Source: Nanobdellota archaeon
Lineage (GTDB): Archaea; Nanobdellota; Nanobdellia; Pacearchaeales; GW2011-AR1
Reading direction: 5' to 3'
Assembly: GCA_024654505.1 (NCBI GenBank)
Contig: JANLHN010000003.1
Location: 132,314 to 196,313, forward strand
DNA: 64,000 bases
Shown: in pieces, positions 4,136 through 64,000 of the stretch
How the letters are laid out: each line of letters opens with the position of its first letter
Position numbering within the stretch: the stretch's first letter is position 1
Translations under genes and position numbers: made by a program
Notes under the pieces: model-generated
The model's input: the letters and a program-made list of their open reading frames with translations, nothing else
The model's database searches: none
What the model was told of the DNA's origin: nothing

Positions 4136-4393
4136 TTAATTCTTTTTTCTAAGTAGCATATAAACTAGAAGAATTACTACTAAAATAGCTAAAACAATTA
4201 AGACTGTTACTCCAGTTCTCCCCATATTTCCTACCGATGCGCCAGTGATTGTTGAAGTGAATTTTTCGGGGGTCCCTTGAGGGTCCTCATAGCCTATTGG
4301 TTTAAGCACAGTTCTTTCCTCAGCGAAAACTAATGGGGCAATTGTTAGACTAATTATTAATATTACAAACAGAAAAGCTATCTCTTTTTTCAT
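4136..4393 (-). CDS. Small secreted/membrane-anchored protein
   Basis: An 85-aa ORF with an N-terminal signal-like hydrophobic segment and a C-terminal TM helix followed by an RKKN tail. Confidence 0.35.
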   Translation of the reverse strand: MKKEIAFLFVILIISLTIAPLVFAEERTVLKPIGYEDPQGTPEKFTSTITGASVGNMGRTGVTVLIVLAILVVILLVYMLLRKKN

Positions 4394-4544
4394 TTAAGTG
4401 TATGGATTTTTTTATTTATAGATTTATCCCTTCTTTATTTGTTCTTTTTCTCCCAATTTATTACTACTCATTTTTGATGAAGGATTTTATAAAATAGGGA
4501 TTAATCACAATAATACTTATATTCTTGGGATTTTATGATTCTGA

Positions 4545-5045
4545 ATGAAAGAAGATCTTAGGGTAACCCTTAAAAGAAAAATAAATGAATTTGATGGAAG
4601 AATTCGGAACTCTTTTGTTTTGATTAGGGAAGACATTAATGAATTGACAAAAACTGTTGATTTGATGAGAAGTTTTTTGAAGGAAAGAGAAAGAAAATTT
4701 GAAAATGCTTGGATTGATGAGGATAAACTTCGAAAGAAGTTAAAAAATAATGTGGATGAATTTAATCAGAATATTCTTCAGTTGAAGATTGCTTTGGCTT
4801 CTGTAAGGAAGATACAAAAAGACCTTGTATTGACTGGAGACCTTGCTAATATTGAGGAGGGAATTAAAATTTCTTTTAAGAATGAAATATTGGGTTACAG
4901 GGAGGAGCTAAAGTCCCTTAGGGAAATAGTGAAGGAAAGCGATAGAAAGATTGGTGTTCTAGAGAAGGGTGTGATTAAGAATGGAAATGGGGAAAAGAAT
5001 GGCTCTAAGAGAAAATGGTCTTTTTGGAGTAATCAACCAAGATAA
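4545..5045 (+). CDS. Coiled-coil hypothetical protein
   Basis: A 166-aa ORF with charged, heptad-like sequence. No recognisable catalytic motif. Confidence 0.4.
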   Translation: MKEDLRVTLKRKINEFDGRIRNSFVLIREDINELTKTVDLMRSFLKERERKFENAWIDEDKLRKKLKNNVDEFNQNILQLKIALASVRKIQKDLVLTGDLANIEEGIKISFKNEILGYREELKSLREIVKESDRKIGVLEKGVIKNGNGEKNGSKRKWSFWSNQPR

Positions 5046-5057
5046 TTTAGAGGTTAG

Positions 5058-5639
5058 TTATCTCATGGGAATAATCTTTCCTATATTATTATAATGTTTT
5101 TTTCCTTTTATTATTAATCCAAAATTCCTAATCTTTCCCCTATCCTGAACCAAATCATGCCATCTCTTTTCCAATTCTTTATAATCCAAATAGGTCCTGT
5201 TTGAAGACATGGGGTCCTCAAAAATTACTTTTTCTTTATCATACCCTATGGCAATAACATAATGTCCGGAATTCCAGGATTTTTTCCAATCTTTTATTGG
5301 TTTATTGGAGTATGCTTGAAGAAGAACAATAACAGGATTCCCCTTATCAATTTGTTTCTTTAAATCATTAATTGTTAAATTTTCTTTATCTATACATCTT
5401 AATCCTTTTTTCTTTAAAAAAGATATTATCCCACAGGTAGGTGTTCCTGTCTTATTTGTTTTTACGCCTATCATTATTTTTTCCTCTTTCATCTCAATCC
5501 CATAATAAGATAAAACTGATTGTGTTGTTTTTGCTCCACAATCATAACCATGTGTTTGTTTATACGACGGCAATTTTAAATGTTTCATGATGTTAACAGG
5601 ATTTTGTGTATTATAAACTTTGTTAAAAAACCACAACAA
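5058..5639 (-). CDS. Papain-like cysteine peptidase, C39-like family
   Basis: A Q...CG motif (QTHGYDCGA) supplies the catalytic Cys. GHYVIAIGYD supplies the His and FEDP the Asp. The arrangement matches C39 / BtrH-like peptidases. Confidence 0.55.
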   Translation of the reverse strand: MLWFFNKVYNTQNPVNIMKHLKLPSYKQTHGYDCGAKTTQSVLSYYGIEMKEEKIMIGVKTNKTGTPTCGIISFLKKKGLRCIDKENLTINDLKKQIDKGNPVIVLLQAYSNKPIKDWKKSWNSGHYVIAIGYDKEKVIFEDPMSSNRTYLDYKELEKRWHDLVQDRGKIRNFGLIIKGKKHYNNIGKIIPMR

Positions 5640-5682
5640 TATTTATAAGGTGGTCGTTCGATTCTTTTTGACGAGGCGAATT

Positions 5683-7572
5683 ATGTGGTCATTATTTGAA
5701 AAAAAAGAGAGTGATTATGGTATAGGGGCTGGTTTATTTGATTATACTGGAAAGAAACTTGAGCCACTTGTTTTTTCTAATGGAAAAACTCAGACAGATA
5801 TAGTCAAGGAGGTCTTAGATTCTATTAATGATGGAAATAAAGTTATTTTTATTCATGGTGTTTGTGGAACGGGTAAATCTGCTATTGCTCTAAACCTTGC
5901 TAGGCATTTTAAAAAAACTTCTATTGTTGTTCCAATTAAATCATTACAAGACCAATATGAGAATGATTATACTAAAAAGAAGTTTCTTTTGAAGAAAGAT
6001 GGAAACCCTTTAAAAATTGCGGTGATAAAGGGTAGAGGAAATTTTCCCTGTAATTTTGGGGGTGATAGGGCAAATGACCCTGAGATTCCCTGTATAATCG
6101 AAATTAAAGAAAGGAATAATGATTTACTTTTAAAATATATTGAGAAAAATCCTGCGACGGATAGAGAAGATTTTTCTTCTGCTTCAGATGTTCGAAGAAT
6201 GAATGTTGCTCCGGCTTGTCCTTACTGGGCCCCAATTATGCCATCCAATATTGAACCCCGGGGTTTGGGTGATTTTACAAGAAAAAAATATATGGCTGTT
6301 TGTGGGAAGGAATATGCATTATTTCAAAGAAAGAAGGGTTGTCCTTATTACGATCAATATGAGGCTTATGTGGATGCAGATGTTTTAATTTTCAATAGTA
6401 TGAAGTATAATTTAGAAATGTTAATGGGTAGAAAACCCAAAAGTGATTTAGATATTATCGATGAATGTGATGAGTTTATGGATAATTTTGCAAATGAAAG
6501 AAGAATTAATTTGAGCCGTTTGCACTCGTCTATTTCTAATTTAGTTTTAATTGATAGAGATAAACTTTTGAAGGCTAAGGAAATTTTGAAGTTGATTAAT
6601 GATTTATTATTTAATCCTGAAGAGTTGGATGTTATGAAAATTGATGGCTCTCCAGTTTACAATTTAGTTATGAAAATCTTGGAGAGCCAGGATTTGGCTG
6701 AGGAAGAAGAAGTTAGTTATTATAATAATGTTGTTGAGATTGTCAGGACTTTTGAGAACCTTTTGGAAGAAACTTACATTTCTATGGAGAAAGTTAAGAA
6801 AGATAGTGAACAGAAAGGGATTTTTGAAAAGAATTTTTCTTCTGAGGATAATGTTTTTGTAAATTTGGTCTCTATTAATTTAGCACAGAAATTTAGGGAG
6901 TTGGTTGACGCAAATAATGTTTTAGTTTTGATGTCTGGGACATTACATTCTGAGGAAGTCCTGAGAGATGTTTTTGGACTTGAAAATTTTAAGATTATTG
7001 AAGCAGAAACTAAAAACCCTGGGGAGACCCGAAAATGTAGAACTGGGCTTGAGAGGAATTGCAGTTTTGCCAATTTTAAGAATGGAACAGTTACTCGAGA
7101 GAGATATTTGAAAATGTTAGATGTTTGTATGGCAAATGCAGAACCACCTACACTAGTTCATATTAGTGCTTTTAAGGATTTGCCGACTGAAGAAGAGAAT
7201 AAAAAATATAAATTTGATAATCTTATCACTAAAGAAAGACTTCATGAATTACAAAGGTTTGGGAATTCCTCGGTTGATGAGTTTACTTCTGGAGAGACAA
7301 AGGTTTTGTTTACTACTAAATGTTCTCGTGGTGTTGATTTTCCTGGAGAGAAATGTAATTCTGTTGTAATTACTCGTTTTCCTTATCCTAATATTCAGGG
7401 TTTATTTTGGAGAATATTAAAAAAAGAACAGCCAGAGAAGTTTATGGAGTTCTATATGGACAAGGCCAGAAGAGACCTGGTTCAGAAGGTTGCTAGAGGT
7501 GTGAGGTTTAAGGGTGATAAAGTTGATTTGTGGAGTCCAGATGTCCGAGTTTTGAATAATGATTTTGGGTGA
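5683..7572 (+). CDS. XPD/Rad3-family Fe-S DNA helicase
   Basis: Walker A is GVCGTGKS. Four Cys lie between the helicase motifs (CNFGG...C...ACPYW...CPYY), forming an Fe-S domain. The DEAH-like box is IIDECDEF and a C-terminal helicase-C_2 region follows. The start was moved to the internal ATG at 5683 to avoid overlap with the divergent neighbour. Confidence 0.7.
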   Translation: MWSLFEKKESDYGIGAGLFDYTGKKLEPLVFSNGKTQTDIVKEVLDSINDGNKVIFIHGVCGTGKSAIALNLARHFKKTSIVVPIKSLQDQYENDYTKKKFLLKKDGNPLKIAVIKGRGNFPCNFGGDRANDPEIPCIIEIKERNNDLLLKYIEKNPATDREDFSSASDVRRMNVAPACPYWAPIMPSNIEPRGLGDFTRKKYMAVCGKEYALFQRKKGCPYYDQYEAYVDADVLIFNSMKYNLEMLMGRKPKSDLDIIDECDEFMDNFANERRINLSRLHSSISNLVLIDRDKLLKAKEILKLINDLLFNPEELDVMKIDGSPVYNLVMKILESQDLAEEEEVSYYNNVVEIVRTFENLLEETYISMEKVKKDSEQKGIFEKNFSSEDNVFVNLVSINLAQKFRELVDANNVLVLMSGTLHSEEVLRDVFGLENFKIIEAETKNPGETRKCRTGLERNCSFANFKNGTVTRERYLKMLDVCMANAEPPTLVHISAFKDLPTEEENKKYKFDNLITKERLHELQRFGNSSVDEFTSGETKVLFTTKCSRGVDFPGEKCNSVVITRFPYPNIQGLFWRILKKEQPEKFMEFYMDKARRDLVQKVARGVRFKGDKVDLWSPDVRVLNNDFG

Positions 7573-8028: not shown

Positions 8029-8613
8029 ATGAAAAAGAAAGTTTTAATTATAGTTGGTCATCCCAAGAGGAATAGTCTGTCTTCATCTATTTCTAAATCC
8101 TATTATGAGGGGGCTGTTTCCTCAGGGAACCTTGTTAAAGAACTTCATTTAAGAGATTTGAAATTTGATCCAATCCTTTGGGATGGATATTCTAATGATA
8201 CCCACCTAGAGTCAGATATAAAAAAGTCTCAGAAATTAATCAAATGGGCTGACCATCTAGTCTTTATTTATCCTGTTTGGTGGCATACAATGCCTGCCCT
8301 TATGAAGGGCTGGATGGATAAAGTTTTTCTTCCAAGTTTTGGATTTAAATATGAGAAGGGGATGAGAAAACCAACTAGACTCTTAACTGGGAAGACTGCA
8401 GAGATAATTAAGACCTCTGGTGGTCCTTGGTGGCTTCATGGATTGCCCGGTCCAACAGATAACCTTTTATGGAAGTTTGGAACTTTTGGGTTTATGGGAA
8501 TCAAGATGAAGCTTTTTGGGGTAACTCATTTTTCAAAGATAAGGATAGGAATGTCAAATGAAAGATTTGAAAAAATTATGAAGAAGGCTAGAAAGTTGGG
8601 TGAGAGAGTTTGA
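8029..8613 (+). CDS. Flavodoxin-like fold NAD(P)H oxidoreductase (Flavodoxin_2 family)
   Basis: The N-terminus MKKKVLIIVGHPKRNS...S matches the NQO1/MdaB-type FMN reductase pattern. The ORF runs 194 aa. Confidence 0.55.
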   Translation: MKKKVLIIVGHPKRNSLSSSISKSYYEGAVSSGNLVKELHLRDLKFDPILWDGYSNDTHLESDIKKSQKLIKWADHLVFIYPVWWHTMPALMKGWMDKVFLPSFGFKYEKGMRKPTRLLTGKTAEIIKTSGGPWWLHGLPGPTDNLLWKFGTFGFMGIKMKLFGVTHFSKIRIGMSNERFEKIMKKARKLGERV

Positions 8614-9075
8614 TTAAAGCCTTCTGCCAGTAAACTTTTCCAAAAAATATCTATAAATATTTATTATAGTTCCAAACAAAAGGAATGCCAAAAGCTGTGC
8701 TATTAATATAGATTCCCAAACCCCATGCCCTGTCTCTAAAAGGTGGCTAGATATCATAAATAAAGTTGGTTGATAAACCATAAATGCTGTGAAAGAAGCC
8801 ACAGGAGTGTAATATAACATATCTTTTGCTATTTTACCTGTTGAGAAACATCCACGTTTTTTATGATTTCTAACTCTTGTAACTAACCAAAAAACTGCGC
8901 AGCCAATAATAGAACCTAGTACAGCAAAAAAAGAAATAAAGTCTGGAGTAGGTTTTAGATGAAAGGCAATATATCCAAATATGGGAGAAGCAATCAGACC
9001 GCCAATTTCGGCAAAAAGAAGTTCATTATTAAAATGGATGGTGTCTTGTTCTATTTCTGGGAGGGAAATGTCCAT
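8614..9075 (-). CDS. Membrane protein, hypothetical
   Basis: A 153-aa ORF with four predicted TM helices. Confidence 0.4.
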   Translation of the reverse strand: MDISLPEIEQDTIHFNNELLFAEIGGLIASPIFGYIAFHLKPTPDFISFFAVLGSIIGCAVFWLVTRVRNHKKRGCFSTGKIAKDMLYYTPVASFTAFMVYQPTLFMISSHLLETGHGVWESILIAQLLAFLLFGTIINIYRYFLEKFTGRRL

Positions 9076-9165
9076 GATTAATAGATAAGTGAGGGTGTTT
9101 TTAAGGCTTTTTAGGGTATCCTCTTTTTTAGAAATTTTTAAATAACTGGAAACCCCTGTTAATCT

Positions 9166-9930
9166 ATGGATAGTAAGGAATGGGACGGTATTTCTAAAGA
9201 TTATTACACAGAGATACTCAGTCCTATAAGGGACAGCCAGAATAGTCCTTTGCTTAATGATTTAAAAATTATTAATCACAAAGAGAAACTATCTGTTGCT
9301 GACTTAGGTTGTGGACTTGGAGAGCTGTCACCTTTTTTGTCTAAATATTTTAATAGGGTTTTTTGTATGGACTTTTCACCCAAAATGATAGAAAGGGCAA
9401 AAAAGAGTAATAAAGACCTTTCTAATGTGGAATTTATTGTTCAAGATATATCTGACCTTAGAGAGTTCTATAATTCTTTTGATGTTATAACTTCCATTAA
9501 TTCAATACTTACACCAGACCTTCATAAAGTAGATAAGATATTTTTAGAGATATATAACTCTTTGAAACAAAAAGGGAAGTTTTTTTGCGTGTTACCTTCT
9601 ATGGAGGTTTTTTCTTATGAATCACTTCTTTTAGCACATGAGGAGATTGATAAAAAACATGAGAAAAAAATAGAAGACGTAAGAAAAATAGTGAGAAGTT
9701 TTATTAAAAGGAAGGAACATGATTTTTTACTTGGAATAACAAATTTTGAGGGAAAACAAAAAGCATATTATCGTTTTGAGATATTATGGCGACTAAATAA
9801 GGCTGGATTTAAAAATATAATAATCAAAAAGATTTTTTATCCTTGGGAAGAATTTGAGAAGGCTGGACAAAAAGCATTCCCTGATGAAGAAATGCTTCCT
9901 TGGGATTGGTATGTGATTGCGGATAAGTGA
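9166..9930 (+). CDS. Class I SAM-dependent methyltransferase
   Basis: The SAM-binding motif is VADLGCGLGELS. The stop codon TGA at 9928-9930 lies inside a tRNA 3'-end-mimic repeat. Confidence 0.6.
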   Translation: MDSKEWDGISKDYYTEILSPIRDSQNSPLLNDLKIINHKEKLSVADLGCGLGELSPFLSKYFNRVFCMDFSPKMIERAKKSNKDLSNVEFIVQDISDLREFYNSFDVITSINSILTPDLHKVDKIFLEIYNSLKQKGKFFCVLPSMEVFSYESLLLAHEEIDKKHEKKIEDVRKIVRSFIKRKEHDFLLGITNFEGKQKAYYRFEILWRLNKAGFKNIIIKKIFYPWEEFEKAGQKAFPDEEMLPWDWYVIADK

Positions 9931-9972
9931 TACGCCCACACCCTGCTCAAAGATACGCCCACACCAGGAATC
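9929..9972. repeat. Direct repeats mimicking a tRNA 3' end (GATACGCCCACACC...)
   Basis: The plus strand reads gatacgcccacaccctgctcaaa + gatacgcccacaccaggaatc. Each copy is the reverse complement of a ...GGGTGTGGGCG tRNA 3' acceptor end. Confidence 0.6.
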
Positions 9973-10058
9973 TGTTCGCATTTCACTCTTCTCTCAAAAT
10001 ATTTGTAGTAGTTCGAGAAGAGCAAAGATGCTCAAACCTGGACCCAGGTTCGAAGATA

Positions 10059-10139
10059 CGCCCATACCAGGAATCGAACCTGGGTACCCCGAAGGGTCAA
10101 GATTTCCAATCTTGTGCAATACCATTATGCGATGTGGGC
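10059..10139 (-). tRNA. tRNA-Ser (anticodon GGA)
   Basis: An 81-nt cloverleaf with acceptor GCCCACA/TATGGGC (one C-A mismatch). The anticodon stem is CAAGA/TCTTG with loop TTGGAAA. A long variable arm ACCCTTCGGGGTAC is present and the T arm is CCAGG-TTCGATT-CCTGG. Discriminator is G and no CCA is encoded. Confidence 0.7.
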
Positions 10140-10175
10140 TTATTATTACAGAATAAAATTAGTTTTTAAGGTTTT

Positions 10176-10435
10176 ACGCCCACACCCTGCTCAAAGATAC
10201 GCCCACACCCTGCTCAAAGATACGCCCACACCCTGCTCGCCTTTAGGTCTGCAATAATCTTTTCATTTGTTCAGACCTAAAAGCTCGGCACCCATTTGGT
10301 GTACCTCTGTTGAGGCAAATCGAAGGTTCGATGTCCGGGAAAACGCCCACACCCTGCTCGCCTTTAGGTCTGCAATAATCTTTTCATTTGTTCAGACCTA
10401 AAAGCTCGGAATCGAAGGTTCGATGTCCGGGAAAA
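10176..10435. repeat. Array of tRNA 3'-end mimics: 23-nt tandem units plus two 92/122-nt hairpin-containing units
   Basis: The 23-nt unit acgcccacaccctgctcaaagat is repeated 2.7 times (10176-10238). Two longer units follow, each starting acgcccacaccctgctcgcc and containing the inverted repeat TAGGTCTG...CAGACCTA. The proximal unit (10222-10342) carries a 30-nt insertion. Confidence 0.65.
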
Positions 10436-10516
10436 CGCCCACACCCGGAATCGAACCGGGATGCCAGTGAAGGCCCGGTTTTCTAGACCGGTGCAATACC
10501 ATTATACGATGTGGGC
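10436..10516 (-). tRNA. Class II tRNA (long variable arm), nominal anticodon AGA (Ser-like; atypical A34)
   Basis: An 81-nt cloverleaf with acceptor GCCCACA/TGTGGGC. The anticodon stem is CCGGT/ACCGG with loop CTAGAAA. The variable arm has a GCC..GGC stem and the T arm is CCCGG-TTCGATT-CCGGG. The first 25 nt are near-identical to tRNA-Ser(GGA). Confidence 0.5.
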
Positions 10517-10559
10517 TTTGCTTATAATTGATGAAGAAAATATGTTTTTAAAAGTTGGC

Positions 10560-36769: not shown

Positions 36770-36887
36770 GCGTGGGTAGTATAAAGTAACAAACAAGTTG
36801 CTTCGAGAATACAACCCACAAATAAATCGCGTGGGTAGTATAAAGTAACGGCATAGCCGTTTCGAGAATACAACCCCCAAATAAATC
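36770..36887 (+). repeat. Two 59-nt-periodic pseudo-5'-end copies of tRNA-Gly (GCGTGGGTAGTATAAAGTAAC + spacer)
   Basis: Copies start at 36770 and 36829, and the real tRNA starts at 36888. In each copy the first 14 nt equal the tRNA 5' end, followed by AAAGTAAC instead of the D-loop. Confidence 0.7.
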
Positions 36888-36959
36888 GCGTGGGTAGTAT
36901 AGTGGTTATTATTCGACGTTGCCAACGTTGGGGCCCGGGTTCGATTCCCGGCCCGCGCA
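36888..36959 (+). tRNA. tRNA-Gly (anticodon GCC)
   Basis: A 72-nt cloverleaf with acceptor GCGTGGG/CCCGCGC. The anticodon stem is CGACG/CGTTG with loop TTGCCAA. The T arm is CCCGG-GTTCGATT-CCCGG and the discriminator is A. Confidence 0.8.
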
Positions 36960-37032
36960 TATTGGGGAATCGAACCCTGTGAGAGATTGGCCTCTGAGAG
37001 GTCTGCAACTTGTTGCCGAGGCCCGCGCATAT
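36960..37032 (+). repeat. 58-nt element plus duplicated tRNA-Gly 3' end (ggcccgcgcatat)
   Basis: The 13-nt direct repeat lies at 36950-36962 and 37020-37032. The intervening segment begins GGGGAATCGAACCC, the reverse complement of a T-arm, and contains the palindrome CCTCTGAGAGG. Confidence 0.6.
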
Positions 37033-37086
37033 CTATTTTTTATATGAAATCATTACATTTTTAAAGTTCTTTTATTTAGTTATTCA

Positions 37087-49537: not shown

Positions 49538-50314
49538 ATGAATTTTAGTCTAATAGATTTGTCCCATATTCCTGGAAGGGAAGATTCCTTAAAAAGTATT
49601 CAGAGATATATGCACCACATCACCCCTGTGATGTATTATAGGACCAATCTTCTAACCCACTCAAGGAGGGTTTCTGGACATCTTGAGGAGGCAGTAGAGG
49701 ATATCCTTTCTGTCCATCCAGGATTTGATGTGGAACTTGCTAGAACTTTGGCCCTTGTTCATGATGATGCAGAAATAATAACGGGAGATGTTCAACTTAT
49801 TGATAAGGAGGGAATGACTAAAGAACAAAAAAGAGAACTCTGGGTGGCAGAAGAAGCGGCGGCGGCAGAATTGGTTAAAAGATATGGTCCTAAGATAAAT
49901 GGGTTAGATTATGCTAAATTATTAGAGTTGGTTGGAACTAAAGAAGTTATAGAAGCTCAATTCGTTTCTTTTTTTGATAAATTCGATGGTGGGGGAGAGG
50001 CGTGGCATGAAGTTTGGGCTGGAAATGAAAGGTTCTTGCTTCCCGCCGGAGGACATCATGGGAGAAGTGGAGGATACGTCAGAAGATTAAACGCTTTTTT
50101 AGAGACATATCCGGCGATGAGAGCTTTTTTTAAAGAATTTCCAGGGTATCTCCCCGAACCTTTTGATTTTAAGTCTGCCGCAAAAACTGGGAAGCCACAC
50201 ACAGTTGATTCTTTAAAAGAAGATAGTGGTTTTCCTCCTTATGAAAGATGGAAGAAAAGTGTTATCAAAAAAGAAGGAACTTCGAATCTTACAACCCGAG
50301 TAGAGTTTCCTTAA
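49538..50314 (+). CDS. HD-domain phosphohydrolase (YfbR-like)
   Basis: H...LALVHDDAEIITGDV fits the HD motif with a downstream Asp. Confidence 0.55.
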   Translation: MNFSLIDLSHIPGREDSLKSIQRYMHHITPVMYYRTNLLTHSRRVSGHLEEAVEDILSVHPGFDVELARTLALVHDDAEIITGDVQLIDKEGMTKEQKRELWVAEEAAAAELVKRYGPKINGLDYAKLLELVGTKEVIEAQFVSFFDKFDGGGEAWHEVWAGNERFLLPAGGHHGRSGGYVRRLNAFLETYPAMRAFFKEFPGYLPEPFDFKSAAKTGKPHTVDSLKEDSGFPPYERWKKSVIKKEGTSNLTTRVEFP

Positions 50315-51690
50315 CGTCTTCCTCTTCTGTTAGAAGTGTTTCTTCCACCACCCCTGAATCCTGTTCTTGGTTTTGAATCTCTATTTCTATTATGACTTGG
50401 TCTTCGATTATCCGAGTCTGAGCTTCTTCTTGGAGGACCTCTTGGTCCTCTGCCATCTTGTGTAGGTCTTCTTGGGGGGCCTCTACTTCCTCCAGATCTT
50501 GGTGGTCCTCGAGATCCGCCCCTTCCACCCCTCATAGGTCTTCCCCTTTCTCTTGGGGCTTCCCATTTGACAAAGATTCTTGGAAATTGTGGAGTCATTT
50601 CTCTCTTGATTATAACTTCTGGATTATGTCTTTGAAAATTTGCAAAGTTATCATAGTCTCTACTAGTAATTATGTTAATAGCTATCCCTTCTTTTCCTGC
50701 CCTTGCTGTCCTACCTATTCTGTGGATATAATCTTTTGAGTCTGATGGAATGTCATAATTATATATATGTGAAACTCCTTCAATATCTAAACCTCTTGCG
50801 GCAACATCTGTACAAACCAAAATATTTACTTTAGAACTATCAAATCCTTTCATAACCCTATTCCTTTTTGATTGTTCCATCCCTCCATGAATTACTTGTG
50901 CACTTATTCCATTATCGTTGAGATTCTTTGCAACAAAATCCGCATTTCTCCTAGTGTTACAGAAAATCATAACTAGGTGTGCTTTTTCATGGTTTAGTAA
51001 ATGAACTAAAAGAGAGAATTTTTCGTTGTCTCGAGCATCATAATAAATTTGTTTTAATTTTGTTGCATCAACATAATGTTTTACTGCTACTTCTGTGGGA
51101 GATTTCATATATTTTGAGGAGAAATCTGCTAACTCTGAAGATATAGTCGCTGAAAAAAGCATTGTTTGTCTTTTTACTGGGCAGGCCTTTACTATTTTCC
51201 CCACATCATCTTTGAAACCCATATCCCACATCCTATCTGCCTCATCCAAAACAAGGAAATCTACGTGGCTGAGGTCAATTGACTTCTGACTCATATGGTC
51301 TAAAAGTCTTCCTGGTGTGGCCACAACGACTTCGGCAGTAGTCAACCGTTTTATTTGATGGTTTATTGAAACTCCACCATACACTGGAAGAACTTCTAAT
51401 CCCTTATGGTAAGCAAATTCTTCAATTGCCTGAGCTACTTGTTCTGCTAATTCTCTTGTAGGTGTTAAAATTAATGCTTGGACTCCTTTTCCTTTCTGAA
51501 CGTTTTTGATTATTCCAACAGCGAAAGCAAGAGTTTTTCCAGAACCCGTTGCCGAACCGGCTATAATATCTTTTCCCTCTAAAATTATTGGAATTGCTCT
51601 CTCTTGAATCTCGCTTGGCTTCTCAAATTTCTTCGCAGAGATTACTCTAATAATATCTTCGCTTATTCCTAACTTCTTGAAACTTTCCAT
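50311..51690 (-). CDS. DEAD-box ATP-dependent RNA helicase with RGG-rich C-terminal tail
   Basis: The Q motif, GSGKTLAF, PTRELA, DEADRM, SAT and HRIGRTAR are all present. The tail is GGRGGSRGPPRSGG... Confidence 0.85.
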   Translation of the reverse strand: MESFKKLGISEDIIRVISAKKFEKPSEIQERAIPIILEGKDIIAGSATGSGKTLAFAVGIIKNVQKGKGVQALILTPTRELAEQVAQAIEEFAYHKGLEVLPVYGGVSINHQIKRLTTAEVVVATPGRLLDHMSQKSIDLSHVDFLVLDEADRMWDMGFKDDVGKIVKACPVKRQTMLFSATISSELADFSSKYMKSPTEVAVKHYVDATKLKQIYYDARDNEKFSLLVHLLNHEKAHLVMIFCNTRRNADFVAKNLNDNGISAQVIHGGMEQSKRNRVMKGFDSSKVNILVCTDVAARGLDIEGVSHIYNYDIPSDSKDYIHRIGRTARAGKEGIAINIITSRDYDNFANFQRHNPEVIIKREMTPQFPRIFVKWEAPRERGRPMRGGRGGSRGPPRSGGSRGPPRRPTQDGRGPRGPPRRSSDSDNRRPSHNRNRDSKPRTGFRGGGRNTSNRRGRR

Positions 51691-58327: not shown

Positions 58328-58744
58328 ATGGAAAAAACACCTATTTCACAAGGAAATACCTGGAATACCTCAGGAGATATTGAAGCTATGGGGACTGGAG
58401 GAGTAGACTCTCTTAAAGAAGCTATTGAGGAGGTAGATGAGTTAATTAGAAAGAGAGAAATTCTAAGTCAGAGGTTTCTTGCTGAGGGAGAAAAAATGAA
58501 GACAAAGATTAATAATTTCTTGTCTGAAAGTGCTCCTAAGGGAGATGATGATTCTGAATTTGCTCGTGAACGGGCAGAGCTTAGAAAAAAACAGATTGAA
58601 ATTTCTGAGATGCAATTGAATGAAACTGTTGGTGCCTGGAGAGATATCGCCCTTTTGAAAAAGGAATTAAGAGATAGAACCAAGGAATTACATGAAAAAA
58701 CTAGTAGGGCTGAAGCTCTTGGAAGGATTATGGAGGGAGAATGA
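58328..58744 (+). CDS. Coiled-coil protein, translationally coupled to downstream ATPase
   Basis: A 138-aa ORF. Its stop overlaps the start of 58741 (ATGA). Confidence 0.4.
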   Translation: MEKTPISQGNTWNTSGDIEAMGTGGVDSLKEAIEEVDELIRKREILSQRFLAEGEKMKTKINNFLSESAPKGDDDSEFARERAELRKKQIEISEMQLNETVGAWRDIALLKKELRDRTKELHEKTSRAEALGRIMEGE

Positions 58745-60648
58745 CATTTCAACACCCATTAACTGTTGAAGAAATTTGTAATAAACTTCGTCCTGTTTAT
58801 GGAGATAAAGTAGATAAGATTTATTTTCAGTATACCGTAGCAGAAAGTAAAGAAGAAAAGGAAGAAATATTCCATTTTTTGAATGCATTATATCAAAAGA
58901 ACCTAAGTAAACTTCTTGACACTGGTGTTTTGTTAGAACCTCCTAGAGAAGAGATGATTGATGGAACTTATGAACTAGGGACGGTAAGTTATGCTAATAG
59001 GAGACTTTTTCCATTTAAATTGAGGGAAAAAGATTGGCCTAGGCATGTTTGTATTACTGGGATGTCGGGTTCTGGAAAAACGACTTTGGCTTTTAGTATT
59101 GTAGATGCTCTAAAGAAAAATGGTAAGCCTTTTTTGATTTTTGACTGGAAAAAATCTTTTAGGCCGTTGTTAAAAGAAGACCATTCTTTATTATGTTTTA
59201 CTGTTGGAAATGATTTAGTTAGTAACTTGTTTAAAACAAATATAAATCAGCCACCAAGAGGGGTTGCTCCAAAAGAGTGGATTAATGTTTTGGCGGATTT
59301 ATTGACTGAATGTTTCTACGCATCTTTTGGTGTTCATAAAGTTATTTTGGAAACTCTTGATGAGGCATTTAAGGAATGGGGAATTTATAATGGATCTCTT
59401 AATTATCCTACCTGGAATCATATTAAGTGGAGGTTAGAAGAAAAACTAAAGAAACAGACGGGTAGAGAAGGTGGTTGGTTAGAGTCTGCCCTAAGAATTG
59501 CTACAGTACTAACTTTCGGAGAATTTGGAAAGACGGTTAATTATAAGGGAGAGAATAGTGTTTCCGTAGAGGACCTATTGAACCAAAGAGTAATTTTAGA
59601 ACTTAATTCGTTAGGGAATATTGAAAAAACTTTCTTTTGTGATTTTGTTTTAATGTATATTTACAAATTGAAAAAAGTTACACAAACAGAAGTTAATCAC
59701 AGTTTTGATCATGCAATTATTGTTGATGAGGCCCATAATATCTTTCTTAAAAGAGAGACTAATTTTGCTAATGAATCTGTAACTGATATGATTTATAGGG
59801 AAATGAGAGAGTATGGGACAAGTCTTATTTGTTTAGACCAACATATTTCTAAAATATCGGATACAGTTAAGGGAAATAGTGCTTGCCATATGGCTTTTCA
59901 ACAGCAATTACCTGCAGATGTTTCAGACATTAGTGATTTGATGCAACTTTGGGAGAAAAAACATTACTTCTCTCAGCTACCTGTTGGAAGTGCGATTGTA
60001 AAACTTTCTGAAAGATATACAAAACCCTTCTTAGTAGAGGTTCCATTGGCAAATGTTAGGAATTTTGATGTAAATGATGTAGAAGTAAGGAGTAGAATGA
60101 ATGCAATGAGTTTGACTAAAGATTTCGAGAAGAATATCGACGAGGAATTTAATGAAGAAATAATTCAACCAAGGCCTGTCTTTGAAGAATCTGAAAAAGT
60201 TATTAGTGATGAAGAAACAAAACCAAGAAATATTGGAGATATTTTATATAATTTTGTTATTGGTTACTTAAATAAAGGTGTTGAACTCCATGAAGTTGAG
60301 AAGATTTTAGAAGAAAGTAAGTCTCAAGGTGGGTATACTTCTGAAGATATAATTAAGGTCATCAATCGTGTCTTTGAGGAACAAGGAAAAGTAAAGTTTA
60401 AAAAAGAGGAGTCCCCTAATAATCTTGGCGATGGATTAAATCAAAATCCCGATAGGCAAGAATTCCTTGAATTTTTGCAAAAGAACCCGAACCATAATTT
60501 TAGTACAGTTGAACTGTACAAACAAATTGGTCTTTCCCCTAGGAAAGGCACTAAAATAAAAAAGGAGCTCGAAGCCGAAGAGCTCATTCGGGTTGAAGAA
60601 GAAAAGAATGAGAAAGGTTGGAAGAAATATATCCGCCTCGCTCGTTAA
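58741..60648 (+). CDS. HerA/DUF87-family P-loop ATPase with C-terminal winged helix
   Basis: Walker A is ITGMSGSGKTT. PFLIFDWKKSF resembles the HerA L-I-F-D-x-x-G-E-Y region. Walker B is IIVDEAHNIF. The C-terminal wHTH is FSTVELYKQIGLSPRKGTKIKKELEAEEL. Confidence 0.6.
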   Translation: MTFQHPLTVEEICNKLRPVYGDKVDKIYFQYTVAESKEEKEEIFHFLNALYQKNLSKLLDTGVLLEPPREEMIDGTYELGTVSYANRRLFPFKLREKDWPRHVCITGMSGSGKTTLAFSIVDALKKNGKPFLIFDWKKSFRPLLKEDHSLLCFTVGNDLVSNLFKTNINQPPRGVAPKEWINVLADLLTECFYASFGVHKVILETLDEAFKEWGIYNGSLNYPTWNHIKWRLEEKLKKQTGREGGWLESALRIATVLTFGEFGKTVNYKGENSVSVEDLLNQRVILELNSLGNIEKTFFCDFVLMYIYKLKKVTQTEVNHSFDHAIIVDEAHNIFLKRETNFANESVTDMIYREMREYGTSLICLDQHISKISDTVKGNSACHMAFQQQLPADVSDISDLMQLWEKKHYFSQLPVGSAIVKLSERYTKPFLVEVPLANVRNFDVNDVEVRSRMNAMSLTKDFEKNIDEEFNEEIIQPRPVFEESEKVISDEETKPRNIGDILYNFVIGYLNKGVELHEVEKILEESKSQGGYTSEDIIKVINRVFEEQGKVKFKKEESPNNLGDGLNQNPDRQEFLEFLQKNPNHNFSTVELYKQIGLSPRKGTKIKKELEAEELIRVEEEKNEKGWKKYIRLAR

Positions 60649-61026
60649 TCATACTTTCACACATCACGACATCCACACACAAAACCAGTAACGACATGAG
60701 CTTTACCGCCCATCTCAACACTCCAGAAACTCGTGGATAAGCAAGATACTTTCAAATGGAAACTTTTGAGAGAATCTATGTGCTAGTCGTGACTGTGTTT
60801 CTGAAACAAATGCGTCGGAATATCTTAGAAATAAGTGTCTGACGTATGCTCTGATGGTGAAATACGTGTCTTAAGTCACTTAGCTTATACAAAGCGCTGG
60901 ATGTCTCCTTGAGGGAGGGCTTCCAGAGAAACGGGGTGTTCCTGTAGTGGCTGTTTTTTGTCGCCCTGATGGTCGGGGTGATTCTTTTTATCGGCTGAGA
61001 CGAAGGCGTCTCGGGAAGGAGTTCGC

Positions 61027-61272
61027 GTGATTAGGATGGGCAACGGACATAGGAGTTCGGAGAAGAAGGAGGGGAAGGTGAAGATAGTGAGGACACCTGC
61101 TCCCCCTTCTGATGAGGCACTGCTTCAGGAGCGGCTGCGCCAGATGGATGTGGCTTCCGGGAAGCTGCCCAGGATGGGGCGGAAGAAGGGGAACAACGGC
61201 TTCAACGGGGAGTCGAACGGCCAGCAGCTAGATGACCCGCTCCGTTCGATGATCCTCCCCAACCACCTCTAG
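61027..61272 (+). CDS. Small basic ORF in GC island
   Basis: GTG start with AAGGAG upstream. 81 aa. Confidence 0.3.
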   Translation: MIRMGNGHRSSEKKEGKVKIVRTPAPPSDEALLQERLRQMDVASGKLPRMGRKKGNNGFNGESNGQQLDDPLRSMILPNHL

Positions 61273-61281
61273 AAGGGAGGG

Positions 61282-61557
61282 GTGATGGGACGGAAGAAGC
61301 AGTGCTATGGGAGAGAGGGAGTCTGTTTGACTCCTAATTGTCCCTACGCCCTGGGTTGTATCCAGATCTGGGGCAGAGACCGACTCCTTAAGAAGAGGGG
61401 AGTTGGGGTAGAACAAAGCGTGCCGAGGGGCTCGGTGCGTTCCAAGGGCCCGCAGGGCAAAGTGTCCCGGGAAAGAAGAATTGGAGGGAGGATAGTAAGT
61501 GAGCAGACCGATTTTCTCAACACCATCTCAGATGATGGTGGGACTCCCAGAAGTTAG
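61282..61557 (+). CDS. Small Cys-containing ORF in GC island
   Basis: CYGREGVCLTPNCPYALGC in the N-terminus. 91 aa. Confidence 0.3.
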   Translation: MMGRKKQCYGREGVCLTPNCPYALGCIQIWGRDRLLKKRGVGVEQSVPRGSVRSKGPQGKVSRERRIGGRIVSEQTDFLNTISDDGGTPRS

Positions 61558-61843
61558 TGGGGGGAGGAAGGTCTCGGTGGACCGCGCCCTGGAAGTCCTG
61601 GGGTTGACGGCATCCACCTTCAGAGACAAGATACAGAGGGAGGAAGGTTTCGACATGGATAACCTCGTTGCTGGGGGGAAGAAGTTCTCTGCGAAGGGGG
61701 CGCCTCTGGCTGGGGGGGAATTCCTCCTCCGGGTCTTCATCGGAGGAAACATCGAGGCCAGAGTTCTCCTGGACCCTGAACGACAGAGGGTACTCTCAAC
61801 TCAGGAAGTCCAGATGACTAGAGAGGGGGTAGTGGCCCTGTAA
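61499..61843 (+). CDS. Excisionase/AlpA-like HTH protein (in GC island)
   Basis: VSVDRALEVLGLTASTFRDKIQREEGF fits the Xis/HTH_17 pattern L-s-x-x-E-a-a-x-l-L-G-v-S-x-s-T-x-y-R. Confidence 0.35.
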   Translation: MSRPIFSTPSQMMVGLPEVSGGRKVSVDRALEVLGLTASTFRDKIQREEGFDMDNLVAGGKKFSAKGAPLAGGEFLLRVFIGGNIEARVLLDPERQRVLSTQEVQMTREGVVAL

Positions 61844-61872
61844 GAGGTCATGGGCTCCTAGACGGGACGATG

Positions 61873-61931
61873 CTGGGGGTGTGGGCTAGGGAGGAAGTTC
61901 TGCCTACACCCCCAGACAGGCTGATTTTTTT
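61873..61931 (+). terminator. GC-rich hairpin (10-bp stem) followed by T7
   Basis: CTGGGGGTGT...ACACCCCCAG then ...ctgattttttt. The stem includes GGGTGTGGGC, identical to the tRNA-Ser 3'-end core. Confidence 0.35.
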
Positions 61932-62169
61932 AGTAATAGGGTCAAGAAAGAAAGGAGAATCTCATGAGTAACAATCTTTGGACCACGTTTGTTTTTTTGT
62001 TTTTTTGTTTTTTTTTGCCTTTATCTATATACTTTAATATATATGTTGAAGAATATAGGTTGAAAATTGTTTTTTGTTTGAGTTTTTGGGGCTGGCCGCC
62101 CCGAATAAAGAATTTGAAGTTTGTTGGAACCACAACAAACTTTATATAATCCTTGAGATAATCTTTGTT

Positions 62170-64000
62170 ATGGGTGATAAATATGTTCGGTGGTTGTCTT
62201 CTCTTTCTAAAAAAGACTTAAACCTTGCTGGAGGAAAGGGTGCAAACTTGGGAGAGATGTATAATAATAAATTTCCTGTTCCACAAGCATTTGTTGTGAC
62301 GACTGATGCCTTTTTTTATTTTCTTAAGGAAACAAAAATCAAGGATGAAATAAGGGCGTTGTTAAACCGAATTGATGTAGATGATTCGGATAAATTGGCA
62401 AAGATAGCTGAAGAAATTCGAGAAACTATCACTAATGCTAAAATGCCAGAAGTTTTAGAAAGAGAAATTATTGAAGCATATGACCATTTTAATGTTGATT
62501 TGGATGGTTTAAAGAGTTCTCCAGGGGCGCTTTCTATTTTGAGGTCTTCGAGAGAACCTGTTTTTGTTTCTGTGAGGTCTTCGGCAACAGCAGAGGATTT
62601 GGAGGGAGCAAGTTTTGCAGGACAGCAAGAGAGTTTTATTAATGTTCGAGGAAATAAAGAATTAATTGAAAAGGTAAAACGTTGTCTCGCATCTATATTT
62701 ACTGCTCGGTCTCTATTTTATCGTAAGAAGAAGGGCTTTGAAGATTTTGTAGGGATTGCAGCTGTCGTTCAGCGAATGGTTAACTCTGAAAAATCTGGTG
62801 TTATGTTTTCTAGACATCCTGTAAAAAATAATGACGAAATTTTAATTGAGGCTGTTTTTGGTCAGGGAGAGGGAATTGTTTCTGGACAAATTAAACCAGA
62901 CCAACACACAGTTAGTAGGGATTTTAAGATTCTTGATGAAAAAATATCTGATAAAAAAATTGAAATTATCCGAACCTCTGGAGGACAAACAAAAACTAAA
63001 GAGTTAGGACCAGAGAAATCTAAGGGCCGTGTTTTGAAAACTTATGAGATTAAACAATTAGCAGAGTTTGCAATTAAACTTGAGAACCATTATAAGAAGC
63101 CGCAAGATATTGAGTTTGCTATTGAAAATGGAGAAATATATATTTTACAAACTCGCCCAATGACTGCACTGAAAAAAGATTATAAGGAAATGGAAGAACT
63201 TGAAGGTCATCTTTTAACGAGTGGTTTGGCTGCATCTCCAGGGGTTGCTTCTGGTCCTGTGAGAATTGTTAATTCTATGGAGGATTTGGGAAAGGTTCGT
63301 GATGGAGATATTCTAGTTACTACAATGACTAATCCTGATATGGTTGTTACTATGCAAAAGGCTGCTGCGATTGTAACTAGTGAGGGAGGTGTTACTGCCC
63401 ACGCCGCGATTGTGTCAAGAGAAATGGGAATTCCTGCCGTCGTCGGAACAAGTGATGCGATGGATGTTTTGACTGATGGAATGGAAGTAACAGTTGATGG
63501 TTTTAATGGAAGAGTTTTTGCTGGAAAAGCTGAAAATAAAAGTGTGAAGATTCTTCCAATAGTGCATACAAAAACCAAAATTAAAGTTTTGGTCGATTTA
63601 CCTCAATTTGCAGAGAGGGCAGCAAAGACCGAAGCTGATGGTGTTGGTTTGGTGAGGCTTGAAGGCTTAATTGCTAGCTCAGGTAAACATCCCTTGGCCT
63701 ATGAAGGAGAAAACAAATTAGAAGAATATCAGGAAATGTTGAAAAAAGGGCTTCTTAAAATTGCAGAGGTCTTTATCGGAAAACCTATTTGGGTTAGAAC
63801 ATCAGATATACGAAGTGATGAGTACTCAAATCTTGAAGGAGCACCTAAAGAAATTGAAAAAAATCCTATGCTTGGAGATCATGGAATTCATTTTTCGTTG
63901 AAACATCCAGAAATTTTAAAAGCCGAACTTAAGGCAATTAATGAACTTACGAAAAAAGGACATAAATTTGGTGTAATGTTTCCTCAGATAATCTCTGTCG
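62170..64000 (+). CDS. ppsA: Phosphoenolpyruvate synthase (PEP-utilising enzyme), 3'-truncated by window end
   Basis: The N-terminus is MGDKYVRWLSSLSKKDLNLAGGKGANLGEM. The phospho-His motif is GGVTAHAAIVSREMGIP. The ORF is absent from the ORF track because no stop occurs before the window end. Confidence 0.85.
   Translation, partial: MGDKYVRWLSSLSKKDLNLAGGKGANLGEMYNNKFPVPQAFVVTTDAFFYFLKETKIKDEIRALLNRIDVDDSDKLAKIAEEIRETITNAKMPEVLEREIIEAYDHFNVDLDGLKSSPGALSILRSSREPVFVSVRSSATAEDLEGASFAGQQESFINVRGNKELIEKVKRCLASIFTARSLFYRKKKGFEDFVGIAAVVQRMVNSEKSGVMFSRHPVKNNDEILIEAVFGQGEGIVSGQIKPDQHTVSRDFKILDEKISDKKIEIIRTSGGQTKTKELGPEKSKGRVLKTYEIKQLAEFAIKLENHYKKPQDIEFAIENGEIYILQTRPMTALKKDYKEMEELEGHLLTSGLAASPGVASGPVRIVNSMEDLGKVRDGDILVTTMTNPDMVVTMQKAAAIVTSEGGVTAHAAIVSREMGIPAVVGTSDAMDVLTDGMEVTVDGFNGRVFAGKAENKSVKILPIVHTKTKIKVLVDLPQFAERAAKTEADGVGLVRLEGLIASSGKHPLAYEGENKLEEYQEMLKKGLLKIAEVFIGKPIWVRTSDIRSDEYSNLEGAPKEIEKNPMLGDHGIHFSLKHPEILKAELKAINELTKKGHKFGVMFPQIISV

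Follow-up and report, generated by a model that had tools for sequence, protein, structure and literature searches.

A GC-rich islet of orphan cargo in a variable, tRNA-associated slot between a HerA-like ATPase gene and ppsA of a Pacearchaeota- or Woesearchaeota-like archaeon

Introduction

Genomic islands and islets associated with tRNA genes combine an anomalous composition and orphan cargo with a fixed site between conserved genes, and their cargo varies among relatives. These traits recur in the locus described here, a GC-rich segment at positions 60868-61931 of a stretch of 64,000 nucleotides (hereafter the window) on contig JANLHN010000003.1 of an archaeon, which is situated between a gene for a HerA-like ATPase and the gene ppsA. 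In some relatives, the same slot holds a tRNA gene, or an integrase of the rve type along with bacterial genes. Unlike tRNA-associated islands, the segment of the window is only 1.07 kb long and lacks a tRNA, an integrase and direct repeats of attachment sites (att), and a cargo gene with a Cys4 motif looks native and is AT-rich in one relative (locus L157; L-numbers label the loci of relatives that were compared, 1.58 Mb in total).

Large structured noncoding RNAs (ncRNAs), of which GOLLD, ROOL and OLE are classes, offer a second comparison. They have been sought as extended intergenic regions (IGRs) of high GC content in A+T-rich genomes (GC-IGR searches; PMC8723152; PMC11109978). Likewise, the segment of the window is a long GC-rich stretch between genes with a strand-specific fold signal, and the same slot of L157 contains a putative RNA of 620 nt, free of open reading frames (ORFs), with a folding z-score of -11.8. 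Nevertheless, the segment has no match in Rfam, and two of its ORFs carry a true coding signal. Integron cassettes are a third system of this kind, as they share with the locus a variable, promoter-less cargo of small genes after a fixed leader and a unit closed by an imperfect hairpin, in their case attC. Still, the arms of the hairpin in the window (CTGGGGGTGTGGGC, GCCTACACCCCCAG) are devoid of the R''/R' cores (RYYYAAC / GTTRRRY), a Pfam search of the island ORFs found no integron integrase, and each locus holds one unit and not an array.

The genomes of DPANN archaea are tiny, these archaea rely on partner cells, and their gene gain and loss are poorly understood. The slot investigated here lies at a fixed place beside a conserved gene for a translocase-like ATPase and contains, depending on the species, tRNAs, FliS, CsrA, an integrase, GC-rich orphans or a folded RNA. 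If it is an import site, it would mark a flow of DNA across lineages or even across domains into Pacearchaeota; should the GC-rich modules be RNAs with a function, they would be candidates for a new RNA class. The original prediction for this locus, a small integrative element with an excisionase and tRNA-Ser att cores, has a negative practical outcome, as neither the excisionase nor the tRNA-Ser att mechanism holds up. An orphan islet of foreign composition is in itself an already known kind of thing. Unusual are the fixed position of the slot, its structured leader and the heterogeneous, partly bacterial cargo including the putative 620-nt RNA of L157. Tentatively, and with somewhat less than even confidence, we favor the view that the segment is a small, decayed cargo, imported or exchanged, of a variable slot that is associated with tRNA genes and enclosed by the HerA-like gene and ppsA.

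Composition and Limits of the GC-Rich Segment

The window has an overall GC content of 0.35. In windows of 400 nt, the flanks ranged from 0.31 to 0.40 and the region at about 60800-62000 from 0.53 to 0.58; the 1-kb bin 61001-62000 reached 0.563, with the remaining bins of the window at 0.28-0.43. With windows of 150 nt, the region 60863-61985 (1123 bp, peak 0.64) was the sole stretch above 0.5 GC longer than 342 bp, and the shorter ones are tRNA loci or parts of genes. The three profiles bear out an abrupt change of composition between the HerA-like gene and ppsA and exclude a uniform GC content. The predicted extent of 1.3 kb (60650-61931) stands for the part from 60868 onwards, in which G and A account for 0.36 and 0.23 of the + strand; the first 220 nt or so (60650-60867; GC 0.40-0.43) are not GC-rich and form a leader outside the island. 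The cargo starts at about 60868, directly 3' of this leader, which is the same position at which a tRNA-Gln gene starts in the closest relative found (L152). A search of the island for G-quadruplex motifs found none.

Codon usage deviates in the same direction. By codon position, GC amounts to 0.60/0.40/0.78 in the first ORF of the segment (ORF1) and 0.63/0.43/0.66 in the third (ORF3), compared with 0.45/0.30/0.26 in the neighboring HerA-like gene, so that GC at third positions (GC3) is 0.66-0.78 in the island ORFs vs. 0.26 in this host gene. Both composition and codon usage of the segment are thus unlike those of the host, which is one mark of genomic islands.

An abrupt change of composition together with a lack of homologs anywhere would also be expected from an assembly chimera or a contamination, i.e., a GC-rich foreign fragment spliced into the contig. 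This is highly improbable: the segment lies in the interior of a contig of 370 kb (369,652 bp), two NCBI records have an identical gene order including the segment, no exact repeats were found at its junctions, and the Cys4 gene ties it to the same locus in L152 and L157. Since four independent assemblies feature an island of the same odd kind at the same place, three of them linked by the Cys4 gene, the segment is a real genomic feature, a GC-rich insert, and not an assembly artefact.

Cargo of the Same Slot in Related Archaea

Homologs of the HerA-like protein with 45-83% identity occur in more than 130 contigs of Pacearchaeota, Woesearchaeota and Nanoarchaeota, always with a gene for a 138-aa protein upstream. 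Among these relatives, ppsA follows 0.4 to 9 kb 3' of the HerA-like gene and the intervening genes differ; hence, what follows the HerA-like gene varies within the group.

In L152 (HerA-like gene 83% identical to that of the window), a tRNA-Gln(CUG) gene at 4190-4265 forms the left edge of the island, 3' of the leader (Rfam, 65.6 bits). It features U1-A72, G73 and an encoded CCA, which would fit a bacterial tRNA-Gln of the GlnRS type rather than an archaeal one; the tRNA-Ser and tRNA-Gly genes of the window, as read, have no encoded CCA. The island itself, at 4266-6710, spans at least 2.4 kb with a GC content of 0.55-0.64 and contains four orphan ORFs, with a GC3 of 0.65-0.82 in the coding genes. 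The coding signal is strong in the ORFs of 174, 386 and 129 aa and weak in the Cys4 ORF of 75 aa (period-3 p = 0.03). The 386-aa protein bears a lipobox signal (LAAC); searches of Pfam, PDB, plasmids and viral sequences found no counterpart. A hairpin and T9 close the island, and the same AT-rich promoter block as in the window comes next.

The slot of L157 (HerA-like gene 70% identical, upstream synteny identical to the window) contains the leader and then, at 8190-9200, about 1 kb of 0.5-0.66 GC. In this part, the 620 nt at 8190-8810 (+) have a minimum free energy (MFE) of -245.5 kcal/mol vs. -190.5 +/- 4.7 kcal/mol in shuffles, i.e., a z-score of -11.8 compared with -5.1 on the - strand. 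No ORF, called gene or Rfam match was found there, nor a homolog in any collected locus, and the stretch is a candidate for a new large structured RNA. An ORF of 93 aa, likewise GC-rich, a hairpin and a T-run follow 3' of it, and then the 73-aa Cys4 gene, located in AT-rich DNA with its own promoter, and ppsA.

A fourth island was found in L005, a Pacearchaeota contig of 415 kb with a HerA-like gene 68-70% identical to that of the window. It extends over 1.2 kb from the HerA-like gene to ppsA with a GC content of 0.47-0.56 vs. 0.35 and ends in a GC hairpin and T5. Its ORFs gave no homologs, and neither in nucleotides nor in proteins does this island resemble that of the window beyond short leader motifs. 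As the window and L005 are not sisters on the HerA-like protein, the GC-rich state is patchily distributed.

Other relatives carry cargo of a different nature. In the closest relative of L005 (L019, 12139-13500), a gene for FliS (Pfam E = 1.4e-31) lies directly 3' of the leader, followed by three tRNA-like genes with odd anticodon loops, one of which ARAGORN reads as a UUA suppressor. By its appearance, this cargo comes from another domain or from a phage. The slot of L153 (8225-13859, the same in L154) contains orphan genes, an integrase/transposase of the rve type (HTH_32 + rve + rve_3) and CsrA. CsrA is a bacterial regulator and FliS a bacterial flagellar chaperone. Moreover, tRNA genes on the + strand occur 0.3-1.9 kb 3' of the HerA-like gene in L020, L043 and L017. 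Together with the tRNA-Gln at the left island edge of L152, these tRNA genes indicate that the slot is tRNA-associated, which retains a weaker form of the original prediction without involving tRNA-Ser. The FliS, CsrA and rve integrase genes and the bacterial-type tRNA-Gln further indicate that the slot can take up outside DNA. Thus, odd cargo recurs in the slots of relatives and is for the most part unrelated: island-to-island comparisons of nucleotides and of all six reading frames revealed as shared only short leader motifs, the N-terminus of the Cys4 protein and the ppsA promoter block.

GC-rich patches of L017 and L045 were considered as related islands as well and rejected, as they are ordinary genes for low-complexity proteins.

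Small Open Reading Frames

Three small ORFs with GC-type codon usage on the + strand formed part of the original prediction, and they are present at 61027-61272, 61282-61557 and 61499-61843 (Table 1). Their length is no evidence of coding, since the longest open stretch (114 aa) compares with a mean of 142 aa in Markov-shuffled sequence of the same composition (P = 0.78), i.e., random sequence gives longer open stretches on average. The period-3 signal is clear in ORF1 and ORF3 (p <= 0.001) and not in ORF2 (p = 0.49); in ORF1, its power is 4.9 vs. 0.75 in shuffles (p < 0.001). The NCBI pipeline called exactly ORF1 and ORF3 in the segment. AlphaFold predicts the ORF1 protein to be mostly disordered with a single helix (pTM 0.21). 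The NCBI cluster of ORF3 is a singleton recorded on two contigs.

For ORF2, the evidence is homology. Its first 30 residues (MGRKKQCYGREGVCLTPNCPYALGCIQIW), which contain the Cys4 motif CxGx(3-6)Cx(2-4)NCPYx(3)C, have homologs in small ORFs that two relatives carry at this locus. The BLASTP E-values are 5e-9 for L152 (4875-5102) and 7e-9 for L157, in which the homolog is a called gene of 73 aa (9362-9583). The codon differences, as read from the sequences, include the synonymous exchanges TGT/TGC, CCC/CCG and GGG/GGC. The gene of L157, just upstream of ppsA, is AT-rich with a GC3 of 0.23.

Each island ORF has a GGAGG 5-9 nt upstream of its start, and among 47 host ORFs of 150 aa or more, two have a Shine-Dalgarno (SD)-like motif upstream. 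The sequence preceding these 47 host ORFs is rich in A+T and shows TATA-like blocks, a pattern that suggests that this organism uses leaderless or non-SD initiation.

Table 1. Coordinates of features at the slot, in positions of the window.
Feature	Position	Strand	Remarks
DUF87/HerA-like P-loop ATPase gene, left slot anchor, host gene outside the island	58741..60648	+	Pfam DUF87, Zot; MCR4284465.1
Structured leader, host feature	60649..60867	+	GC 0.40-0.43; MFE z -4.3; motifs shared with relatives
GC-rich cargo, true island	60868..61931	+	GC 0.57; no Rfam family; 60868-61540 folds with z = -3.6
Hairpin GTCGCCCTGA-TGG-TCGGGGTGAT, then TCTTTTTAT (T5)	60960..60992	+	Terminator scan
ORF1, basic orphan of 78 aa (NUV97_00285/MCR4284466.1)	61036..61272, alternative GTG 61027	+	Period-3; NCBI call, singleton cluster
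ORF2, Cys4 mini-protein	61285..61557	+	Not called by NCBI; 3' part overlaps the hairpin cluster
Cluster of four GC hairpins of 9-10 bp	61347..61480	+	61260-61520 folds with z = -3.3, 0/200 shuffles
ORF3, orphan alpha/beta protein of 103 aa (NUV97_00290/MCR4284467.1)	61532..61843, alternative GTG 61499 (114 aa)	+	Period-3; NCBI call
Terminal hairpin, 9-nt spacer and T7	61873..61931	+	Presumed end of the cargo transcript
ppsA upstream region, right slot anchor, AT-rich	61932..62170	+	Conserved promoter-like block 62008-62060

Structured Leader, Hairpins and RNA Folding

The leader is predicted to adopt a closed multi-branch fold with a stronger signal on the + strand (0/200 shuffles) than on the - strand (z = -2.5). 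Among its motifs are CCAGAAACTCGTGGATAA at 60723, AGTCGTGACTGTGTTTCTGAA at 60784 and CTGATGGTGAAATACG at 60848, and the order of the motifs CCAGAAAC(N)GTGGATAA, AGTCGTGACTGT(G)TTTCTGA and GAYGG..AAATA after the HerA-like gene is kept in L152, L157 and L005. The leader of L157 folds with a z-score of -5.2. The window and L157 share a long-range helix, UCACGAC/GUCGUGA, for which L152 has a shifted pair, CUAUGAA/UUCAUAG, instead, an observation by eye that is anecdotal. A hidden Markov model built from three leaders recovered only those three sequences, and a search of viral contigs for the leader hairpin core gave 20 matches, which is the chance level.

Within the cargo, the hairpin at 60960-60992 is terminator-like and may end a transcript of the HerA-like gene and the leader. 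A similar hairpin core (CTGGTGTTCGGGGTGTTTCTT) is located at a comparable distance from the HerA-like gene in L005 and is unique in the 1.58 Mb of loci with two mismatches allowed. Further downstream, windows of 200 nt over the hairpin cluster fold with z-scores of -2.7 to -3.7 on the + strand and of -0.3 to -2.0 on the - strand, and the signal of -2.7 to -3.7 lies in the part between ORF1 and ORF3, with values around 0 over the two ORFs themselves.

At the right end, a terminator-like stem of 10 bp with T7 had been predicted. Hairpin and T7 do exist; the stem has proved longer, with arms of 14 nt (61873-61886 and 61902-61915, 93% complementary, one G.T pair) around a 15-nt loop, and the T-run (61925-61931) lies 9 nt past it. 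At this distance, the T-run departs from the pattern of a canonical intrinsic terminator, in which it would directly follow the stem, and the hairpin is missing from the results of the terminator scan. A T-run by itself can terminate archaeal transcription. The islands of L005, L152 and L157 likewise end in a GC hairpin and a T-run, followed by the AT-rich ppsA promoter block. In blastn, the region upstream of ppsA in the window is 77-86% identical to the end of L152 (6763-6815) and to the regions upstream of ppsA in L108, L034, L004 and L087.

These folds raise the question whether the segment is mainly a lineage-specific locus of a stable RNA, structured or of dual function, in which selection on structure keeps GC high and the small ORFs are secondary or partly spurious. 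Such a locus would agree with the fold signals of the leader, of 61260-61520 and of 60868-61540, which are stronger on the + strand, and with the ORF-free stretch in the same slot of L157, which folds most strongly on that strand as well. All other extragenic GC-rich patches of the window are tRNA loci, tRNA genes occur in the slots of relatives, and the ORF lengths lie within chance. Nevertheless, the codon periodicity of ORF1 and ORF3 is clear exactly where the fold signal vanishes, the conserved part of ORF2 behaves as a protein, and the islands share no conserved sequence with one another. Moreover, no Rfam family was found for the island of the window at gathering thresholds, with only weak chance matches far below the gathering score at E <= 10, nor for the L157 region at permissive thresholds, and the islands of L005 and L152 gave only the tRNA. 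All in all, we regard an RNA locus as a serious but rather unlikely explanation.

Origin of the Cargo

In the favored reading, that of an imported or exchanged cargo, the host is an A+T-rich DPANN archaeon of the Pacearchaeota or Woesearchaeota type, and the slot between the HerA-like gene and ppsA, starting after the structured leader of about 220 nt, is a variable cargo site of its lineage. The segment 60868-61931 would most likely stem from a GC-richer gene pool, be it that of a related archaeon, of its mobile element or of the symbiont's partner, and would by now be a decayed remnant without integrase, tRNA or att repeats. The cargo would be read on the + strand as a small operon of three mini-proteins with stable hairpins between the genes, namely a disordered basic protein of 78 aa, a Cys4 protein of a locus-specific family and an alpha/beta orphan of 103-114 aa. 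Its transcript would presumably stop shortly in front of the ppsA promoter, with the 14-bp hairpin and T7 as its end. Entry might have occurred by tRNA-linked integration or by recombination across the conserved flanks. The segment had been put forward as the strongest signal of horizontal transfer in the window; it is the strongest compositional anomaly there, and the transfer itself is what we infer from it.

A number of results weigh against this reading. No donor emerged: ORF1, ORF2 and ORF3 have no homolog in a word search of 5.8 billion clusters and no match in Pfam, PHROGs, NCBIfam, PADLOC, viral contigs, JGI metagenomes or tblastn searches of phages and plasmids, and a HMMER scan of 1.84 billion representative proteins with ORF3 returned only ORF3 itself and one spurious repeat protein. 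Likewise, a nucleotide search with the cargo gave no match in phages, plasmids, viral contigs or any collected relative locus. The Arg codons of the island ORFs are mostly AGG/AGA, as in the host and unlike GC-rich bacteria, and GGAGG is no more frequent in the island than its composition predicts, which makes the SD motifs a weak argument for foreign ORFs. A repeat search found no flanking direct repeats (attL/attR) at the borders, no tRNA or tRNA fragment lies within 60400-62300, and no integrase was found among the tested neighbors of the tRNA-Ser and tRNA-Gly loci. Furthermore, the AT-rich, native-looking Cys4 gene of L157 implies that at least part of the cargo is the lineage's own and not foreign, and the strongly folded 620 nt of L157, together with the z-scores of -3.3 to -3.6 in the island of the window, point towards an RNA function. 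It is the missing donor, the AT-rich Cys4 copy and the folded RNA filling the slot of L157 that keep our preference tentative, since according to these three facts the GC-richness might reflect selection on RNA structure or a local process that raises GC.

A local process of the latter kind could be GC-biased gene conversion at a recombination hotspot or a strand-biased A-to-G mutation, either of which would have enriched native sequence in GC in situ. Such a course would fit the Cys4 gene, which is AT-rich in L157 but rich in GC in L152 and the window, with differences that include synonymous AT-to-GC exchanges. It would also fit the host-like choice of Arg codons and the fact that the islands of the window and of L005 are G-rich on the same strand. 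We consider it improbable: a mechanism of this kind is neither known nor encoded in the vicinity, the borders are abrupt and fall at the leader's end and at the presumed terminator, and FliS, CsrA and the rve integrase in the slots of relatives show real import.

Beyond import, the clade might keep a dedicated expression slot, composed of the leader, a GC-rich module of fast turnover, and a closing hairpin with T-run, whose modules would represent a new class of large structured RNAs plus mini-proteins maintained GC-rich against the A+T bias. The 620-nt RNA of L157 would be its clearest member and the island of the window a protein-bearing variant, and the modules might act in the interaction of symbiont and host or with the adjacent translocase-like ATPase. 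We deem this idea unlikely, if less so than a rise of GC in situ.

The Predicted Excisionase and tRNA-Ser Attachment Sites

The original prediction assigned an AlpA/Xis-like helix-turn-helix (HTH) to ORF3 and described a small integrative element that targets tRNA-Ser att cores and closes with a core-bearing terminator hairpin. Excisionases of phages and of integrative and conjugative elements (lambda Xis, AlpA/HTH_17, MerR-like) are comparable to ORF3 in that this protein is small and contains a stretch, VSVDRALEVLGLTASTFRDKIQ, that looks like an HTH by eye. Unlike them, ORF3 matched no Pfam family at E <= 1 and no PHROG, NCBIfam or PADLOC profile, HTH_17, Xis and MerR included, and no integrase domain was detected among the island ORFs by Pfam that could serve as its partner. 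A phmmer search against PDB sequences gave nothing at E <= 10. The predicted structure (AlphaFold, pLDDT 67, pTM 0.55) has no significant fold match and is not a winged helix. Accordingly, an AlpA- or Xis-like nature of ORF3 finds no support in its sequence or in its predicted fold.

The core shared by the right-end hairpin and the tRNA-Ser array does exist: GGGTGTGGGC, 10 nt long, occurs at 61877, in the 5' arm of the hairpin, and in six exact copies and one with a single mismatch at 9934-10446 around two tRNA-Ser genes. The foreign composition of the segment and the fragments of tRNA ends duplicated at two tRNA loci of the window would also agree with an element of this kind. At the island, however, the core is a single copy, and the left border lacks it. 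When the island is shuffled with its dinucleotides kept, 3.9% of the shuffles match the tRNA-Ser repeat unit over 10 nt or more, and 47% match any of six tRNAs in this way. An integrase was looked for in the island ORFs and among the neighbors of the tRNA loci and not found; the neighbors tested encode a methyltransferase, ExoIII, SNase, a flavodoxin-like protein, a PD-(D/E)XK nuclease and two proteins without Pfam match. Besides, the slot of the closest relative abuts tRNA-Gln and not tRNA-Ser. No remnant of this tRNA-Gln was found in the island of the window, and L152 has no repeat of the tRNA-Gln 3' end that would resemble an attR copy. An excisionase-bearing element aimed at tRNA-Ser is thus already largely refuted and very improbable.

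tRNA Loci and Neighboring Genes

The two tRNA-Ser genes are encoded on the - strand at 10059-10139 and 10436-10516, within a repeat zone (9932-10520) that contains tandem 23-bp repeats of the tRNA-Ser 3' end (tacgcccacaccctgctcaaaga) and, between the genes, two copies of a module of about 55 nt. Judged from the sequence, these repeats resemble scars left by recurrent rounds of integration and excision at tRNA-Ser; the genes for the methyltransferase and ExoIII are their neighbors, without an integrase. At the tRNA-Gly gene (36888-36959, zone 36770-37035), two partial copies of the 5' end (gcgtgggtagtataaagtaac) lie upstream, and the 3' end ggcccgcgcata is duplicated (36950 and 37022). As tRNA-end fragments are duplicated at both loci, tRNA-targeting elements were probably once active in this genome.

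The HerA-like protein of the window has 635 aa, and the NCBIfam family that it matches best is the DNA-translocating ATPase CedD, with a partial match well under the cutoff of this family. The upstream gene (58328-58744), which pairs with the ATPase gene, encodes a coiled-coil protein of 138 aa, and the C-terminal tail of the ATPase is winged-helix-like; going by these sequence features, the pair may form a DNA-translocation module. In L025 (10001-12322), the HerA-like protein is extended to 773 aa by a low-complexity repeat, GDASRIVGDASNISGDVSNVIGNVSNLIG..., inserted in the linker before the C-terminal domain.

In one subclade (L014, L040, L034, L108, L087, L016 and L015), a conserved gene for a protein of about 90 aa (MPRISDEKIEKISEQILSYLY...RMRWRISNRAH), resembling winged-helix regulators, lies on the - strand just upstream of ppsA and divergent from it; neither the window nor L005 has this gene. 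Elsewhere in the window, a GC-rich patch at 50377-50612 (-) lies apparently inside an ORF of the - strand (50311-51690) and may, judged by eye, be a coding effect of Gly/Arg-rich low complexity rather than foreign DNA.

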